Positions 1-6,745 of a DNA stretch of 64,000 bases are shown in pieces. Made by a program: the position numbers and the translations under genes. Below the pieces are notes generated by a model that saw only the letters and a list, made by a program, of their open reading frames with translations, did no database searches and was not told where the DNA came from. Position 1 is the first letter of the stretch. Every line of letters begins with the position of its first letter. The DNA comes from an uncultured Candidatus Saccharibacteria bacterium (lineage in GTDB: Bacteria; Patescibacteriota; Saccharimonadia; Saccharimonadales; CAZDBS01): contig CAZDBS010000001.1 of NCBI GenBank assembly GCA_964503775.1, positions 9,621-73,620 of the forward strand, written 5' to 3'.

Positions 1-1027
1 TCAGGTTGCGGTAGTAGATTGATGCCCAGGTCAGATAGACAAAGAGTAGCGGCTCGACAACTAGCATTAGTTCGCTCCACATGGCGATCGGGAGTCGGAG
101 CCAGACAAGCATCTTGGAATATTTCGGATCGCTGTTAAAAATCAGCTGACGGTTTTTGGCAACAGCCTGGAGATTACCAAATTTCCATCGATAGCGTTGA
201 TTAAGCAGACTTTTGAACGACATGACCGGTTCGGTGGTGACGATGACGTCAGAGGCATACACCAGGCGGTTGTCTTTGTTACCCAGCCCGGCAATAGACA
301 GACTTACGTCGATGTCTTCGGTTTTCATCGTTTGGTCAAAACCACCCACTGTTTTTAGAAGTGAGTAGCGATATGTGGCGCCGGCACCACCGATGATGTA
401 CTCACTGTTGGCCAGGGTGTAGAACTTCTTGGACCTGAAACTACTCATATATTCAAATCGTTGCAACAGCCCCAAAACTGTCGGCAACTCAAGCAAACGA
501 ACATTTGCAGCAAGTGCAGCAACTTTCGGATCAAGATTAAAATGCTGAACGACATTTTCGAGAGCATTGACGTCCAGTATGCAGTCGGCATCGAGAGTCA
601 TAACCAGCTCACCTTTGGCGTATTTATGAAGAGCGAAGTTTAAATTAGAACCCTTACCGTGCTTTTGACGTTTAATCAAGCGGATGTTGACCCCGGGGTG
701 TTCTTTGATGAATTTTCGAACCAGAGAAACGGTCTTGTCTTTAGACGCGTCATCGATGACGATTATTTCGAAATTCTTGTACGAGGAGTCTAGGATACTC
801 AATAGGGTTCGTTCGATGACCAACTCTTCATTGTAGGCCGGAACTAAGACAGAGATCAGTGGTTTATGTCGGAAAGCTAAACCATAGGGATGATCGCGCT
901 TTAATTTCTCACGACGCACTAATTCAAAGTCATACAGTGATGCACCGATCAGCGACATAGCCGCAAAAAACAGCGACGTAAACACCGTACAGTAGAATAA
1001 AAACCACAAAATTTCTGTAATATTCAT
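1..1027 (-). CDS. Processive family-2 glycosyltransferase (PgaC/IcaA/cellulose-synthase-like), C-terminal part beyond window edge
   Basis: Absent from the ORF track because it runs off the window. My translation from the ATG at 1027-1025 gives MNITEILWFLFYCTVFTSLFF (TM), then ISVLVPAYNEE, IIVIDDAS, MTLDADC, KTEDIDVS and NQRYRWKFG. These are the D, DxD, TED and Q(R/Q)xRW motifs of processive GT2 synthases. It starts 1 nt after the sortase stop. Confidence 0.8.
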   Translation of the reverse strand, partial: MNITEILWFLFYCTVFTSLFFAAMSLIGASLYDFELVRREKLKRDHPYGLAFRHKPLISVLVPAYNEELVIERTLLSILDSSYKNFEIIVIDDASKDKTVSLVRKFIKEHPGVNIRLIKRQKHGKGSNLNFALHKYAKGELVMTLDADCILDVNALENVVQHFNLDPKVAALAANVRLLELPTVLGLLQRFEYMSSFRSKKFYTLANSEYIIGGAGATYRYSLLKTVGGFDQTMKTEDIDVSLSIAGLGNKDNRLVYASDVIVTTEPVMSFKSLLNQRYRWKFGNLQAVAKNRQLIFNSDPKYSKMLVWLRLPIAMWSELMLVVEPLLFVYLTWASIYYRNL

Positions 1028-1028
1028 C

Positions 1029-1691
1029 TTAGATCCTCACCTTTACGAACTTAAAAGTAAACAATCGACGATTTTGATCCCAGGCACCAGAGCAGGTTTG
1101 GACAACTAGTTTTGGCGCTCCGACTTCTTGGAGAACATCAACATCAGTTGGTTTCACGTCATGGGCACCGGTGAAGACGTAGTAGAAAACTGCACCGGTA
1201 TTGGTACGAATCATGACTAGTTCACCGCCCCGCAGGTTATACAATTTACTAAAGACAGCTCGAGTATTGTGTCCATAGATAAAAGTCGTTCCCTCTCGAT
1301 TATTGGCCAGTGCCGTAACCGTAGCGTAGTAAGCCGAGGAGGGACCCAGCGTCCAGCTCTTGTTGACTTCATTGTAGTAGCCCTCAGATATCGGAACGCT
1401 CATATTGAGAGAGGAGATAATGATTTCAACCGGTTTACCACTGACAAATTTGGTTACCGGCACGTCCGCTGCAGCTGTCTTAACAGAAGCAGAGGGTCTA
1501 GCAGTCGAAGTCTCGGCCACCACTTGCTTGTCAGCAGCCTCTATTACCTCTGTTGGTACTACTATCGGTGCTTCAGCGGCACCCTCCGGCCTTACAAACA
1601 AAATCGTGGCTACAATAGCAGCCACGATCGACACGATCCCCAAAGTCATGTGAACTGCCGTGAAGGTAAGTTCTGACCTTGGTGAGCGCAT
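1029..1691 (-). CDS. Sortase family transpeptidase (N-terminal membrane anchor)
   Basis: Catalytic-triad context: H in FIYGHNTR, C in LVVQTCSG (TLxTC-like), R in QNRRLFTF. TM segment LGIVSIVAAIVATILFV. I chose the ATG at 1691 (M30 of the track ORF) because it lies 16 nt after the stop of the upstream LPNTG gene. Confidence 0.7.
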   Translation of the reverse strand: MRSPRSELTFTAVHMTLGIVSIVAAIVATILFVRPEGAAEAPIVVPTEVIEAADKQVVAETSTARPSASVKTAAADVPVTKFVSGKPVEIIISSLNMSVPISEGYYNEVNKSWTLGPSSAYYATVTALANNREGTTFIYGHNTRAVFSKLYNLRGGELVMIRTNTGAVFYYVFTGAHDVKPTDVDVLQEVGAPKLVVQTCSGAWDQNRRLFTFKFVKVRI

Positions 1692-1707
1692 AACGTCTAT
1701 TCCCCGC

Positions 1708-1890
1708 TTATTTAGTGCGAAGAGAATGACGGTAGAGGGCGACACCGAGCTGTAATACAACAGCTGTGACACCAACAACGATTGCTACAACAGCGATCGT
1801 GCTGAGAATCGTGCGACTCCCTGTGTTTGGTAATACTGCGATTCCTGCAGCGGTTGATGTACCGCCTAGGACAACACCTCGTCCGTACAT
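1708..1890 (-). CDS. 60-aa minimal LPXTG (LPNTG) sorting-signal protein
   Basis: Reads MYGRGVVLGGTSTAAGIAV-LPNTG-hydrophobic stretch-YRHSLRTK. An AAGGAG RBS lies about 7 nt upstream of the ATG and an AT-rich promoter-like region lies further upstream. It sits immediately upstream of the sortase. Confidence 0.55.
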   Translation of the reverse strand: MYGRGVVLGGTSTAAGIAVLPNTGSRTILSTIAVVAIVVGVTAVVLQLGVALYRHSLRTK

Positions 1891-2092
1891 ACGTCTCTCC
1901 TTTGAATCATTAGATTTATAGATGTACGAGCGAATATTACCCTATATATGCGTATTTGTAAAGAGTATTTTATTACATGCTTATGCTTACCAAACAGCTT
2001 ATCTTTATAATACTCTTGTAATTTGCACCATATTCTTGTAAAATCAGCATCAAATTGAAAAATTTAACTGATGTTAAGGAGCAGTGTAGATT

Positions 2093-3538
2093 ATGAAGAA
2101 ACTTAAATTCAAAGGTTTTCGTCTAGCGTTGGCTGGCTTACTACTTTTGGGAAGCATAGTCTCAAGCGTGCCAAAAGCCACCGCAGCAACACTAACACCA
2201 ACCGCTCAGGTTTCGTTTACTTTTGACGATGCCTTAGCGAGCACCTACACAAAAGCAGCACCTACACTTGCTAAATACGGTCAAACCGGAACAGTTTATG
2301 TCACGACCGGTTGTGTTGGCAGTGTCGGCACATGCCCAGCGGACCCTCAATCAACATATATGACTTGGGACCAGGTCAGCGCCCTGAAAACAACTTACAA
2401 CTGGGAAATCGGTGCACACACCGTGTCTCACCCTCAACTCGCTACTGATGGCTTGACGACAGCCCAGATTGTCAGCGAACTGAGTGATAGTAAAAATGAT
2501 CTGACCGCCCATGGTTTCAATGCGCAGGCCTTCGCCAGCCCATACGGGGATTACAACCCAACAGGTAACCCAGTTCTAGCCGAGATAGCCAAGCTCTACA
2601 GTTCACACCGTGGTTTTGCCGATACTGGTTACAACTCCTTCCCAAACAATGACTATCTACTGAGAGATCAACAGGTTCAGGCCGGAGTTACTGTAGCAAC
2701 AGTCAAAGGTTATATCGACCAAGCTATCGCCAGTAAGACATGGTTGGTTCTCACCTTCCATGATATTCAAGATACGCCGAACACCGACCCCGAGGAGTAC
2801 GAATATGCTACTGCGGATCTCGACGCTATTGCCGCCTATGTCAAAAGCAAAAATCTACGAGTGGTCAATGTTAGCGACGGTTTGGCAACGAGTGCAACTA
2901 ACATGCTAACCAACTCATCTTTCGACAACGGCTTAGCTGATGGTTGGACAACCGACAATGCCACGAGCGTCAAACTCAACACTGCCAACAACGGCAGCTA
3001 CCCAAGTCCCAAAAACTCGATTGAGTTAAACTCATCCACAACCAACGTTCATTTATTCTCCCCAACCGTTGATGTCGATTCTGCCCAAACCTACGTTGTT
3101 AAAAGTTTTCTCAATGTTCTCAAGCACGCTAGTGGTGAAGTCGCGTATTACGTGGACGAATATGATCTGAACGGAGTGTGGTTACAAACTCAGTATAAGA
3201 AAAGTGAGCCTACGGCTTTCGTCGAGACTATCAATTTCGAATACAAGCCTACCTCAGCAACTGTCAAAAAAGCTCGCGTACAGGTTGTAGTGACGGCTAA
3301 CTCTGGCATCCAAGCCTTTGTAGACAATTTCCAGATGTTCTCCGAATCAGGTACAACTCCTCCTGTAGCCCAGACACCAGGCGATGTAAATGGTGATAAG
3401 ATCGTGAACGCCCTCGATCTCAGTATCCTGCTGACCAACTGGTCTAAGACAGCTACCCGTGCCCAGGGTGATCTCAGTGGTGATGGTGTAGCAAACGCCC
3501 TCGATCTGTCGATATTACTAACGAACTGGAGTAAATAA
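2093..3538 (+). CDS. Secreted polysaccharide deacetylase (CE4/NodB domain) with CBM-like middle region and C-terminal dockerin repeats
   Basis: Signal peptide MKKLKFKGFRLALAGLLLLGSIVSSVPKATA. NodB motifs FTFDDA and HTVSHPQL. Two dockerin Ca-binding repeats, GDVNGDKIVNALDLSILLTNWSK and GDLSGDGVANALDLSILLTNWSK. GGAG RBS before the ATG. Confidence 0.8.
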   Translation: MKKLKFKGFRLALAGLLLLGSIVSSVPKATAATLTPTAQVSFTFDDALASTYTKAAPTLAKYGQTGTVYVTTGCVGSVGTCPADPQSTYMTWDQVSALKTTYNWEIGAHTVSHPQLATDGLTTAQIVSELSDSKNDLTAHGFNAQAFASPYGDYNPTGNPVLAEIAKLYSSHRGFADTGYNSFPNNDYLLRDQQVQAGVTVATVKGYIDQAIASKTWLVLTFHDIQDTPNTDPEEYEYATADLDAIAAYVKSKNLRVVNVSDGLATSATNMLTNSSFDNGLADGWTTDNATSVKLNTANNGSYPSPKNSIELNSSTTNVHLFSPTVDVDSAQTYVVKSFLNVLKHASGEVAYYVDEYDLNGVWLQTQYKKSEPTAFVETINFEYKPTSATVKKARVQVVVTANSGIQAFVDNFQMFSESGTTPPVAQTPGDVNGDKIVNALDLSILLTNWSKTATRAQGDLSGDGVANALDLSILLTNWSK

Positions 3539-3540
3539 TT

Positions 3541-4461
3541 ATGAATCGAATCAAATCTATCAGCCTTAGCCTTGCACTCGCTGCGGCGACAGTTTTCGGA
3601 TATATGCCCACAAATGTCCAAGCCCTTGGTGCTGCCAGTTTATCTCTAACTGGAGCGGGTTCTCACCAAGTCAACAGCACATTCTCAGTCTCTGTCTACG
3701 AGAACAGTGGTGCCGATATGGTAAACGTTGTCCAGAGCGATATCGCATATGACGTTTCCAAATTGCAGTTCGTCAGTATCGACGCCAGCGGTAGCGCTTT
3801 TGGTATCGACGCCTACTCTGCTAACACCGGCAATGTCGTAACGATTACACGAGGCGTATCTGGTGGTGCGACCGTCACAGGTAGTAAGTTAGTAGCTTCT
3901 GTCATCTTTAAAGCTTTGGCCGGCAGTGGCTCTACAAGTATCAGCTTCCAACCAAGCTCGAAAATTTATCGATCAACCGATAACACTGACATATGGAACC
4001 AAGTCACGACAGGTGCCTCGTATAGTTTCACCACCCCAGCTCCGACACCAACTCCTACGCCAACCCCGACCCCAACACCAAAGCCTGCCACTACACCAAA
4101 AGTTACCATGCAGTCTACACCCAGCACAGTAGCTTCTACTCCGACTCCAACTCCTACAAACACCCTAGGTGCTACGGAGCAACCGAAAGCAGAAACGACC
4201 ACCACATCTACAACAGATTCAGAATATCACCCTGCTCAGGTAACCAATACCAGCAACGGAACCAAAGTCTGGGGCTTCATGGCCGCATTTGCCGCTATTG
4301 CACTCGGTATCCTGGCAGTAAAACGGAACTTCGTACCAGCTAAATCAGCAGCCGTGGTCTACACTGCGCCAGAAGCTAAGGTCACAAAATCAAAATCTAG
4401 CGCTACCAAGAAGAAAACAGCCAGCAAGTCCACGACTGCTAAAAAGACTAAAAAGTCATAA
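3541..4461 (+). CDS. Membrane-anchored cohesin-domain protein with Pro/Thr linker and Lys-rich cytoplasmic tail
   Basis: Signal peptide, then a cohesin-like block (STFSVSVYENSGADMVNVVQSDIAYDVSKLQFVSIDASG...KLVASVIFKAL). This is followed by a (PTPT)n linker, the TM segment VWGFMAAFAAIALGILAV and a K/S/T-rich tail. It starts 3 nt after the dockerin protein stop. Confidence 0.7.
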   Translation: MNRIKSISLSLALAAATVFGYMPTNVQALGAASLSLTGAGSHQVNSTFSVSVYENSGADMVNVVQSDIAYDVSKLQFVSIDASGSAFGIDAYSANTGNVVTITRGVSGGATVTGSKLVASVIFKALAGSGSTSISFQPSSKIYRSTDNTDIWNQVTTGASYSFTTPAPTPTPTPTPTPTPKPATTPKVTMQSTPSTVASTPTPTPTNTLGATEQPKAETTTTSTTDSEYHPAQVTNTSNGTKVWGFMAAFAAIALGILAVKRNFVPAKSAAVVYTAPEAKVTKSKSSATKKKTASKSTTAKKTKKS

Positions 4462-4486
4462 GCCTGACGAGGTTGCTACGTCGTGA

Positions 4487-4514
4487 AGGGAGGAGTTCTA
4501 GCTCCTCCCTTTTA
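4487..4514 (+). terminator. Rho-independent terminator after cohesin gene
   Basis: agggaggag / ctcctccct 9-bp stem with a 6-nt loop, followed by a T-run. Confidence 0.65.
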
Positions 4515-4545
4515 TGATATAATTACCCCTGTTCTAAAGATTAAT

Positions 4546-4620
4546 GCGGGTGTCGTACAACGGCTAGTATATGAGTTTTCCAAACTCAGGACGAGGGTTC
4601 GATTCCCTCCACCCGCACCA
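4546..4620 (+). tRNA. tRNA-Gly(UCC), CCA encoded
   Basis: Manual cloverleaf: acceptor gcgggtg/cacccgc, anticodon stem tgagt/actca, loop tt-TCC-aa, T-arm gaggg-ttcgatt-ccctc. Confidence 0.9.
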
Positions 4621-5536: not shown

Positions 5537-6745
5537 CTATCGGACATATTCCAAATACTTATCCATGTCCCATGGCCCAAGACCACACCCCACTGATGTG
5601 TTCTTTGCTAATCGAAGTGTCACTGAGTTCACTAGCTGTATAAGAATACTTATCTTGCTATTCGGTGATCCAGTGCCACTATCAACCTCATAACAGTAGG
5701 TCTTGTCGTCTCTTACTAAACTAAAGTCGAGATTAATTGCGCCCTTTGTAGTGGGATCAAAGCTATAAATACTACTCGTTATCATACCTAGCTGTTGTGC
5801 CATATTGCCGATCGAGATAACACCTCTGGTCGAATCATAATTACTGTGCACGAGCGCCAATGACCCACCCACGTCCCAGAGCCCCGATGGGTCTGAATCC
5901 TTACTCATCCATATTCCCTGGACAGTATTCGGCACATCCTGGTATATCGTGCCACACGGCAGTACCTTAGACTGTCTTAGCATACCCCCAAAATCACCAA
6001 TTTTAGCGTACAGCTGCTTTGATACGTCGCTTGAATAATAATCCAATGTACATACGTAGTGACGCTCGCTGTCAGGCCATCGTTTCAGGTTTGCCAATAC
6101 CGGGTTGGGTATCCTCTTATCGATAAGTGCAAAATCCAGCCCATCCGGGTAACCTCGTTCACCACCCGCCCAACCCAATACCTCTCCGGCTTTTAATTTC
6201 ACCTCCACTTCCTTGTAATCATTGTGCGACCTCTTGGCTTTGCCAACATCACTTTCTTGGGTGCGATCATATGGCGGTTGCATAGCTGCAGCTAGGGCAT
6301 CATTGAGTTTTTGAACCAGTATAAAATACCCAGTTACATCTTTGCATATTTTAAAATCGATACGATAGGCTTCATACGGCTTATCCAAGTCGTTGTTATC
6401 CATTTTCATCATCTGTGTGACGGTCATGTCGGCCGGCACATAGAGTGTTGTTTTGTTTGGACCATTGTCAGTGTGGATATAGTTGTAATACATGTGAGTT
6501 GTCGGCAAGACATGTCCGGGCGGCGCGAGATTACCAAGAGGTACGATCGTACTGATCTCTTCTAATTTTACAGGCGGGTTTTGTAAAATCCTCTCCTTCG
6601 ATACACAATCCGATCCACTACTCGCCATATTGTGCTGTTTTTTGAATACAATCGCCCCGACTAAGGTGATTACTAAGATTACCAACCCTATCATGACAAT
6701 GTGAGCAAAGCCATGGTCGCTAACTCTGGAAGAAACCATAAGCAA
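5537..6745 (-). CDS. Secreted/membrane-anchored hypothetical protein, paralog of 61971-63218 (possible distant LytM/M23-like barrel)
   Basis: N-terminal module SDHGFAHIVMIGLVILVITLVGAIVF. Shared blocks with the 61971 ORF: PPGHVLPTTHMYY vs AGAHVTPIDHLYF, YRIDFKICKDVTGYFILVQKL vs YRFEIQHSCQTVSYFDLVTKL, KLKAGEVLGW vs AVKAGQEVGR. Confidence 0.5.
   Translation of the reverse strand: MLMVSSRVSDHGFAHIVMIGLVILVITLVGAIVFKKQHNMASSGSDCVSKERILQNPPVKLEEISTIVPLGNLAPPGHVLPTTHMYYNYIHTDNGPNKTTLYVPADMTVTQMMKMDNNDLDKPYEAYRIDFKICKDVTGYFILVQKLNDALAAAMQPPYDRTQESDVGKAKRSHNDYKEVEVKLKAGEVLGWAGGERGYPDGLDFALIDKRIPNPVLANLKRWPDSERHYVCTLDYYSSDVSKQLYAKIGDFGGMLRQSKVLPCGTIYQDVPNTVQGIWMSKDSDPSGLWDVGGSLALVHSNYDSTRGVISIGNMAQQLGMITSSIYSFDPTTKGAINLDFSLVRDDKTYCYEVDSGTGSPNSKISILIQLVNSVTLRLAKNTSVGCGLGPWDMDKYLEYVR

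Follow-up and report, generated by a model that had tools for sequence, protein, structure and literature searches.

A candidate cohesin–dockerin surface tether for a CE4 deacetylase in Candidatus Saccharibacteria

Introduction

The cohesin proteins OlpA and OlpC of Clostridium thermocellum are attached through S-layer homology (SLH) modules to the S-layer or cell wall. In Cellulosilyticum lentocellum, ClcC and ClcD are encoded by adjacent single cohesin and dockerin genes and form a 1:1 heterodimer in vitro (PMC13487519, 2026). Here we describe a comparable pair of genes in a 64,000-nucleotide (nt) stretch of DNA from an uncultured Candidatus Saccharibacteria bacterium (assembly GCA_964503775.1, contig CAZDBS010000001.1, positions 9,621 to 73,620, forward strand), hereafter the window. 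Gene 1 codes for a predicted secreted CE4 deacetylase that ends in a dockerin, and gene 2 for a predicted membrane-anchored cohesin protein.

Cultivated Saccharibacteria live attached to host bacteria, and the organization of their surface is largely not known. Dockerin and cohesin genes from the Candidate Phyla Radiation (CPR) have so far been mentioned only in passing. In Southlakia, transposon sequencing showed that envelope proteins bearing dockerin and other glycan-related domains are essential, with no cohesin partner identified (PMC10633639), and the expressed cohesin and dockerin genes of Shapirobacterales were read as a cellulosome (PMC9123182). No description of operonic cohesin–dockerin pairs, or of CE4 cargo, in Saccharibacteria was found in the literature searched.

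Results

Gene 2 encodes a cohesin module on a predicted membrane anchor

The full-length gene 2 protein had no Pfam cohesin match, even at E ≤ 1. Its matches to HHH_RecD2, SslE, myosin light chain and GP1 in Pfam, NCBIfam and the PDB were rejected as low-complexity noise and were overruled by those of the isolated domain. The isolated domain (residues ∼27–164) matched the Pfam cohesin family PF00963 with 28.6 bits against a gathering cutoff of 24.1 (E 1.8e-6). The original prediction had made the cohesin assignment depend on a significant match to the family hidden Markov model (HMM); such a match was obtained with the domain but not with the whole protein. The failure of the full-length search is an artefact, because the Pro/Thr linker and the Lys-rich tail trigger the composition-bias correction. 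Composition bias also leaves several relatives (P0001, P0009, P0012 and others; P numbers denote homologous proteins) without any precomputed Pfam domain, which suggests that cohesins are under-counted in CPR genomes.

An N-terminal domain of ∼138 residues could be aligned across the gene 2 protein family, and PF00963 was matched by 23 of 30 homologous domains. Homologues of the protein carry precomputed PF00963 assignments, one of them being named a cohesin-domain protein of Candidatus Saccharimonadales. A profile of the family matched the type-I cohesins 6kgc, 2vn5 and 1g1k in the PDB at E values of about 1e-5.

An AlphaFold model of the protein had a predicted local distance difference test (pLDDT) score above 90 over residues 31–170, followed by a disordered linker and a helix at residues 245–261. 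The 30 best Foldseek matches of this model in the PDB were all cohesins (best E 1.6e-10, TM-scores 0.75–0.78), which speaks against the unrelated immunoglobulin (Ig)-like fold that had been named as the alternative. Cohesin CohA2 of Clostridium acetobutylicum and cohesins of C. cellulolyticum were the best of these (E 1.6e-10 to 1e-8), and the list also held OlpC (4dh2, rank 11) and the non-cellulosomal cohesins of Archaeoglobus fulgidus and C. perfringens (ranks 12–20). As modelled, the module is a cohesin with a nine-stranded β-sandwich (jelly-roll) fold and not a generic Ig fold.

The rest of the protein agrees with its predicted role as an anchor. A signal peptide is present in gene 2 as well as in gene 1. 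The Pro/Thr/Ser-rich linker probably forms a stalk that crosses the wall. It leads into a single transmembrane (TM) helix and a Lys-rich tail, and similar tails are found in the homologues P0001, P0007, P0008, P0011 and P0020. The architecture of cohesin, (PT)n linker, one TM helix and Lys-rich tail that had been read from the sequence was thus recovered by sequence inspection, Pfam domain scan and model together.

The cohesin subfamily comprises 513 representative clusters at E ≤ 1e-30 and 6,383 at E ≤ 1e-10. Some of its members (P0160, P0229, P0198 and P0242) have 7–14 cohesin repeats and lengths of up to 2,276 residues, so that true multi-cohesin scaffoldins exist among the relatives.

Gene 1 combines a CE4 domain, a β-sandwich and a symmetric dockerin

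The catalytic domain of the gene 1 protein matched Polysacc_deac_1 (PF01522) over residues 37–158 with 58.2 bits (E 1.1e-15). The CE4 motifs are TFDD (Asp-45, Asp-46), HTVSH (His-109, His-113), PYG (residues 150–152), Arg-173 and His-223. Among 32 homologues Asp-45, Asp-46, His-109, Arg-173 and His-223 were invariant, and His-113 was nearly so (≥90%). With the family HMM match, the TFDD motif, the His-x3-His pair and the motif 5 His all in place, the protein is a CE4 family member, and deacetylase activity is predicted. The AlphaFold model (predicted template modelling score, pTM, 0.76) had pLDDT values above 90 for both the CE4 barrel and the β-sandwich that follows it. When the full model was submitted to Foldseek, matches to carbohydrate-binding modules (CBMs) dominated and CE4 relatives were poorly ranked, and a profile search with the CE4 domain was used instead.

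The β-sandwich gave a sub-threshold match to CBM_4_9 (19.1 bits against a cutoff of 25.9, residues 270–401) and resembled CBM16, CBM22, CBM4 and CBM61 structures in Foldseek at TM-scores of about 0.8. Paralogues that have no dockerin carry this β-sandwich in two to three copies. The CE4 family is large in Saccharimonadales (781 matches at E < 1e-10), and almost all of its members are proteins of 580–760 residues with two or three sandwich copies and no dockerin. Among the best 120 CE4 homologues, PF00404 was found only in the cluster of the window protein itself (P0037) and in P0136. As nearly all CE4 relatives are without a dockerin, the dockerin-bearing enzyme is a rare variant in which the dockerin replaces the terminal sandwich modules.

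Dockerin_1 (PF00404) was matched by residues 429–475 with 35.3 bits against a cutoff of 22.9 (E 1.4e-8), covering profile positions 1–52 of 57, and dockerins of the PDB were matched as well (2y3n_B, E 9e-5). The module consists of two tandem segments of ∼22 residues, each a 12-residue EF-hand-like Ca2+-binding loop followed by a helix, as in type-I dockerins. The loops, DVNGDKIVNALD and DLSGDGVANALD, were judged by the presence of Asp or Asn at positions 1, 3, 5, 9 and 12; position 3 of loop 2 is Ser. Each is followed by the same helix, (NA)LDLSILLTNWSK, which contains LSILLTNWSK. The two helices (NALDLSILLTNWSK) are identical as protein but not as DNA: of 14 codons, 8 differ, all of them synonymously (0 non-synonymous differences). 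This pattern indicates that selection has maintained helix identity and that no recent duplication lies behind it. As the two halves are identical and under purifying selection, a dual binding mode is possible, and the symmetric dockerin could probably bind its cohesin in either of two orientations. The motifs listed in the original prediction (FTFDDA, HTVSHPQL, GDVNGDKIVNALDLSILL, GDLSGDGVANALDLSILL, the (PT)n run, the hydrophobic helix and the Lys-rich tail) are all present, and its description of the 481-residue protein as signal peptide, NodB/CE4 domain, CBM-like sandwich and dockerin is upheld by Pfam, model and motif reading.

The pairing recurs in related genomes

A search of species-representative genomes with an alignment of 7 cohesin sequences gave 3 loci. 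The gene context of relatives was collected protein by protein, and the loci are designated here by L numbers. Named relatives of both proteins belong to Candidatus Saccharimonadales or Saccharibacteria. A gene for a CE4–sandwich–dockerin protein lies directly upstream of one for a cohesin–linker–TM protein in three further Saccharibacteria lineages. The first is represented by an 804-kb contig (L002; a copy is on L003), whose cohesin is 46–57% identical to that of the window depending on the alignment; in the second, a metagenome-assembled genome of an uncultured Saccharibacterium (L004/L014/L015), it is 76% identical; and in the third (L013) it is 36–46% identical, again depending on the alignment, and the gap between the genes is again 2 nt. 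All four dockerin-bearing CE4 genes found therefore adjoin a cohesin gene, which is immediately downstream in every case.

The pairing extends to other cargos. At 10 of 11 distinct loci of related cohesins a gene for a protein with a C-terminal dockerin is adjacent, as scored with a dockerin HMM that was built partly from the same loci; in nine of these it is immediately upstream on the same strand. Pfam Dockerin_1 confirmed the dockerin genes at 8 of the 9 loci outside the window. The cargos include Ig-like proteins with Big_7, fn3 and CARDB domains (L006, L009, L010), an fn3 protein (L007), a BNR/sortilin-like protein of 1,521 residues (L005) and cohesin–dockerin adaptor proteins (L005, L012), and L012 has an additional dockerin gene downstream of the cohesin. 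These comparisons show that membrane-anchored cohesins are common in the Saccharibacterial lineage, are routinely missed by full-length Pfam scans and are almost always beside a dockerin cargo. The window pair is one case of a recurrent design in which the gene for an anchored cohesin neighbors one or more dockerin-cargo genes.

Positions 10–11 of the dockerin loops, which we take from the cellulosome literature to be the classical type-I specificity positions, vary across the loci (AL, GM, LT, LL, IR, VF and others), and the two repeats of one dockerin usually agree. A homology search with the 62-residue dockerin alone returned 3 matches from 9 candidates and does not constitute a census of dockerin cargos.

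Two of the loci are more elaborate. Positions 1–7742 of L005 hold, in a row, two fn3–dockerin proteins, of which one is the 1,521-residue protein with BNR/sortilin-like repeats, a 233-residue cohesin+dockerin adaptor and a cohesin–fn3–CarboxypepD_reg protein; this contig was assigned to a 'Gammaproteobacteria' bin, perhaps in error. Positions 1713–6628 of L012 hold a cohesin–fn3–dockerin protein, a 227-residue dockerin protein, a two-cohesin protein and another dockerin protein. Both arrangements suggest hierarchical assemblies. At L009 a GH114 gene follows the cohesin gene (1749–2744). GH114 enzymes are endo-α-1,4-polygalactosaminidases that act on partly deacetylated N-acetylgalactosamine polymers, and the gene is another hint that these cohesin loci are tied to the processing of exopolysaccharides.

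The essential 'dockerin' protein SEML1_0315 from Southlakia was considered as an orthologue and rejected: it is an Ig-domain protein of 927 residues encoded beside a tRNA gene, and is neither a CE4 protein nor adjacent to a cohesin.

Probable transcription unit and gene neighborhood

The two open reading frames (ORFs) have the predicted boundaries (Table 1), and their junction reads TGG AGT AAA TAA tt ATG, with the stop codon at 3536–3538 and a 2-nt spacer before the second start codon. AAGGAG stands 11 nt before the ATG of gene 1, and GGAG stands 11 nt before that of gene 2, within the 3′ end of gene 1. The only terminator-like hairpin follows gene 2 and lies upstream of tRNA-Gly (4546–4620); none of 200 shuffled sequences was as stable. 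A terminator consensus scan of this region missed it. From this layout, genes 1 and 2 probably form a co-transcribed unit. The promoters of this unit and of the divergent one are presumed to lie in the AT-rich intergenic region, where a sigma-70 consensus scan found promoter-like hexamers on both strands at chance level. Across the 64 kb of the window there is exactly one cohesin and one dockerin, and the two are adjacent.

Table 1. Positions of the paired genes, their domains and flanking features in the window (aa, amino acids)
Feature	Position	Strand	Evidence
Gene 1, predicted secreted CE4 deacetylase with CBM-like β-sandwich and C-terminal dockerin, 481 aa	2093..3538	+	ORF, Pfam, model
Signal peptide, aa 1–31, MKKLKFKG...PKATA/A	2093..2185	+	Sequence, low-pLDDT N-terminus; cleavage site inferred
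CE4/NodB catalytic domain, aa 37–265	2201..2887	+	Pfam, invariant residues, pLDDT >90, PDB profile matches to CE4 enzymes
CBM4_9/16/22-like β-sandwich, aa ∼270–418	2900..3346	+	Pfam (sub-threshold), Foldseek
Dockerin, two Ca2+-binding loops, aa 429–481	3377..3535	+	Pfam Dockerin_1, PDB dockerin matches
Gene 2, predicted membrane-anchored cohesin protein, 306 aa	3541..4461	+	ORF, junction sequence, homologues
Cohesin domain, aa 30–166	3628..4038	+	PF00963 on isolated domain, PDB profile, model, Foldseek
Pro/Thr/Ser-rich disordered linker, aa 167–243, ∼77 residues	4039..4269	+	Sequence; pLDDT <60, no secondary structure
Single TM helix, aa 245–261, hydrophobic stretch VWGFMAAFAAIALGILAV	4273..4323	+	Modelled helix, sequence
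Lys/Ser/Thr-rich tail, aa 262–306	4324..4458	+	Sequence; predicted cytoplasmic by positive-inside rule
GC-rich hairpin then UUUUAU, intrinsic-terminator-like	4480..4518	+	Minimum free energy −29.4 kcal/mol, z −5.7
AT-rich divergent intergenic region (∼200 bp) between the mini-LPXTG/sortase/GT2 and CE4–dockerin/cohesin units	1891..2092		Sequence
Mini-LPXTG ORF, 60 aa: Gly-rich 20 aa, LPNTG, TM, basic tail	1708..1890	−	ORF, near-threshold LPXTG models; conserved in L002, L014
Sortase	1029..1778	−	Pfam Sortase 57.5 bits; orthologues in L002, L014
Processive GT2 synthase, 5′ part, QRYRW motif, running off the window start	1..1027	−	Translation; orthologues in L002, L014

The divergent unit codes for a mini-LPXTG protein, a sortase, which is probably translated from the internal Met of MRSPRSEL, and a GT2 synthase cut by the window edge. 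The best NCBIfam match of the synthase was PgaC_IcaA (162 bits, below the equivalog cutoff of 422), as it was for the full-length orthologue of L002 (145 bits). The same unit occurs in L002 (11675–13895) and L014 (7668–9787). Its 60-residue ORF has no signal peptide, reads LPKTG in L014 and always stands directly ahead of the sortase and the PgaC/IcaA-like GT2. It is odd that a sortase 'substrate' should be nearly only a sorting signal and be linked to a polysaccharide synthase. In L013, a divergent 69-residue ORF and its 263-residue neighbor were considered as an equivalent unit and rejected as unrelated, the larger being P-type-ATPase-like.

The gene order of L014 is GH10, a dockerin-less CE4, GT2, sortase, the 60-residue ORF, CE4–dockerin, cohesin, Cupin, trypsin-like protease and VIT1. 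L014 is collinear with the window, and L002 has the same genes rearranged. Both relatives thus carry a GH10 gene and a second CE4 paralogue without dockerin in the neighborhood of the pair (L014 4477–7671; L002 4469–6196 and 9591–11408). The GH10 genes (267–277 bits) are divergently adjacent to a CE4 gene in both, and their products have ∼260 unassigned N-terminal residues. Because L014 is collinear, GH10 and the second CE4 gene probably lie just past the left edge of the window. PgaA/PgaD or IcaC/IcaD were not evident among the listed neighbors of L002 and L014, for which no dedicated search was made.

Further downstream in the window, a 402-residue ORF (5537–6745, minus strand) with an N-terminal TM segment lies between tRNA-His and a CvpA/trypsin-like protease gene and has no Pfam match. 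As far as the cohesin gene and tRNA-Gly, the Logan contig L001 matches the window at 100% identity. From window position ∼4621 (L001 ∼1813) onward the two diverge completely, the break falling exactly at the 3′ end of tRNA-Gly. L001 has neither the tRNA-Arg nor the Cupin gene, other genes (bPH_3, Crp-like regulator) standing in their place. This break resembles a strain-specific event at a tRNA gene, either insertion or replacement, or else a join made during assembly.

Discussion

We consider it likely that the two genes code for a cargo and its dedicated surface anchor, such that the cohesin holds the dockerin-bearing CE4 protein at the cell surface. The gene 1 product would be exported by Sec and would fold into a metal-dependent CE4 de-acetylase, a β-sandwich of the carbohydrate-binding type and a Ca2+-binding dockerin. 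The gene 2 product would be exported likewise and lose its signal peptide, with the C-terminal TM helix remaining in the membrane and the Lys-rich tail inside. Lifted through the wall by the Pro/Thr stalk, the N-terminal, type-I-like cohesin would then receive the dockerin 1:1 with Ca2+, so that one CE4 enzyme is kept at the surface per anchor.

This proposal concerns the tether and leaves the substrate as a separate question. Our sequence-based ranking places a polymer of N-acetylglucosamine (GlcNAc) first, acetylxylan second and peptidoglycan or chitin last. The first choice, held tentatively, is a GlcNAc-containing surface polysaccharide or exopolysaccharide that the PgaC/IcaA-like GT2 of the conserved neighborhood would synthesize. 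If so, the tether would replace the lipid or membrane attachment of PgaB and IcaB. The best NCBIfam matches of the CE4 protein were HfsH (70.7 bits, cutoff 400), PgaB (31.4 bits, cutoff 321.9) and IcaB (24.8 bits, cutoff 248). Its best PDB profile matches were 6dq3 (48 bits) and the poly-N-acetylglucosamine (PNAG) deacetylases BpsB and PgaB (40.5 and 33.7 bits). The PDB ranking leans to de-N-acetylases of GlcNAc polymers, without a clear separation from acetylxylan esterases.

Several observations count against a GlcNAc polymer. The PgaC, PgaB, IcaB and HfsH matches are far below their equivalog cutoffs, and the likeness within CE4 is at the family level only. The acetylxylan esterases 2cc0 and 7ax7 score 30–31 bits, close to the PNAG deacetylases. 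A strong GH10 gene stands in the same neighborhood of relatives, and the shared neighborhood may be plain synteny between related genomes rather than a functional cluster. L013 has the CE4–dockerin/cohesin pair without GT2, sortase or GH10 neighbors, on a short contig of 5.7 kb.

The GH10 gene and the xylan-type CBM fold bring acetylxylan into consideration, a substrate absent from the original list of peptidoglycan, chitin and PNAG. The same tether would then hold an acetylxylan (hemicellulose) esterase that works with the neighboring GH10 xylanase in a minimal, cellulosome-like harvesting of plant polysaccharide. The divergent adjacency of GH10 and CE4 genes in L014 and L002 fits this explanation, as does the resemblance of the β-sandwich to the CBM22 and CBM4 xylan-binding modules of GH10 xylanases, although it also resembles CBM16 and CBM61, which bind other glycans. 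Beyond the two esterases already named, 7fbw was the first CE4 match by fold, and cellulosomes do hold dockerin-bearing CE4 esterases (2c71). Yet the GH10 protein has no dockerin and is encoded outside the window, the top sequence matches are de-N-acetylases and not esterases, and the linked unit of PgaC-like GT2 and sortase is left unexplained. We regard an acetylxylan substrate as rather doubtful.

A de-N-acetylase of peptidoglycan or chitin (PgdA/PdaA-like) on the same tether is improbable. It could act on the cell's own wall, giving protection from lysozyme or autolysins, or on the wall of an actinobacterial host during episymbiosis. The CE4 family includes PgdA, PdaA and PdaC, which were matched weakly (17–22 bits), and relatives are labelled 'peptidoglycan/xylan/chitin deacetylase' by JGI. 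The expansion of the family in Saccharimonadales would fit a role related to lifestyle, and cultivated Saccharibacteria are epibionts with essential glycan-binding envelope proteins (PMC10633639). However, peptidoglycan deacetylases were the weakest of the CE4 matches in the PDB, and Pfam detected no LysM, SH3b or PG_binding domain in the gene 1 protein.

The proposed tether has a rival of its own, which we judge quite improbable. The two modules might not be partners: the cohesin would bind a ligand on the host surface or another dockerin, the dockerin would bind another cohesin or serve as a Ca2+-stabilized module, and their adjacency would be inherited gene order. Several points weigh against the tether. 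Binding of the pair is predicted from sequence context, and our view covers 64 kb of the genome, so that either module may have its true partner among dockerins or cohesins encoded outside this stretch. In the gene 1 model, the dockerin has a pLDDT of ∼35 and is covered by only 2 of 32 alignment rows. At the sole exception among the 11 loci, L011, the cohesin has no detectable dockerin neighbor. Pfam Dockerin_1 failed for L006 and for the third dockerin gene of L012 (5351–6628), and the HMM behind the adjacency count draws on some of the same loci. With several dockerins and cohesins at L012 and L005 the choice of partner is not self-evident there, and for cohesin- and dockerin-like modules outside cellulosomes partners are mostly not known.

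On the other side, adjacency at 10 of 11 loci is seen with cohesins that are only 30–45% identical and with unrelated cargos, which makes inherited order alone hard to accept. Cohesin and dockerin identity matrices were correlated (Mantel r 0.66, reached by 3 of 5000 permutations), a correlation confounded by shared phylogeny. Each of the four CE4–dockerin genes has its cohesin immediately downstream, the sole dockerin and the sole cohesin of the window adjoin, and the analogous adjacent pair of C. lentocellum does bind (PMC13487519). Two other interpretations were rejected: a true cellulosome, given one cohesin and one dockerin in 64 kb, a CE4 and not a GH cargo and an anchor without CBM3, and a pga/ica equivalog, given PgaB and IcaB scores far below the cutoffs.

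The pairing offers a testable model for the display of enzymes and adhesin-like proteins on tiny cells and extends the idea of a minimal cohesin–dockerin pair past cellulose degradation. The general pattern of cognate pairs in Saccharibacteria is the part most worth pursuing. A broader proposal joins two claims: that operon-encoded cognate pairs are a general, non-covalent means of Saccharibacterial surface display, and that the CE4 pair belongs to an envelope module building a partly de-N-acetylated adhesive glycan for attachment to the host. In this joint form it is unlikely to hold. Each TM-anchored cohesin would have its own cargo (CE4, Ig-like/fn3 adhesin-like, BNR or even cohesin–dockerin adaptors), and loop positions 10–11 of the dockerin would determine its specificity. 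The envelope module would consist of the PgaC-like synthase, the sortase, the 60-residue LPXTG peptide, the second CE4 and GH10. A surface-tethered CE4 enzyme with a PgaC-like synthase would, if true, point to a deacetylated exopolysaccharide in CPR adhesion; an acetylxylan esterase beside GH10, if true, would bear on the feeding of soil Saccharibacteria.

Known systems share parts of this arrangement. PgaB, IcaB and BpsB with PgaC/IcaA, and HfsH with HfsG of the Caulobacter holdfast, likewise place a CE4 de-N-acetylase at the envelope near a processive GT2. PgaB and IcaB are kept there by a lipid anchor or a hydrophobic loop, whereas the window enzyme would be kept by a cohesin–dockerin pair. 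Xyn11A-CE4 of C. thermocellum (2c71, matched with 16.8 bits) combines CE4 and a type-I dockerin in one polypeptide, as gene 1 does, but cellulosomal CE4 esterases are modules of multi-enzyme xylanases that dock on multi-cohesin scaffoldins. The GH84C/GH33 toxin complexes of C. perfringens (2jh2/2vo8/2w1n) and the A. fulgidus cohesin (2xdh) are, like the window pair, examples of these modules outside cellulose degradation. Those of C. perfringens join secreted glycosidases to one another and not to the cell, and neither system has a TM-anchored cohesin with an operonic CE4 cargo.

ClcC/ClcD is similar in that a single cohesin and a single dockerin enzyme come from neighboring genes that are apparently co-transcribed and have a ribosome-binding site each. 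That complex has been demonstrated by experiment, whereas the window pair is known from sequence. The C. lentocellum cargo is a GH5 cellulase and its cohesin protein is unanchored and carries CBM3 and X2 modules; the window has a CE4 cargo and a predicted type-I membrane cohesin protein without a CBM. The hosts also differ, a cellulolytic Firmicute with an asymmetric dockerin and a single predicted binding mode as against a Saccharibacterium with a symmetric dockerin. In OlpA and OlpC (Coh-OlpC-Doc435, 4dh2), as in the proposed tether, one cell-bound type-I cohesin catches single dockerin enzymes without a multi-cohesin scaffoldin. These proteins serve many cellulosome enzymes and have no dedicated cargo next door, whereas the window anchor has a predicted TM helix and its likely partner in the same two-gene unit. 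By analogy, the window anchor resembles a single-cohesin anchoring protein and may work like one.

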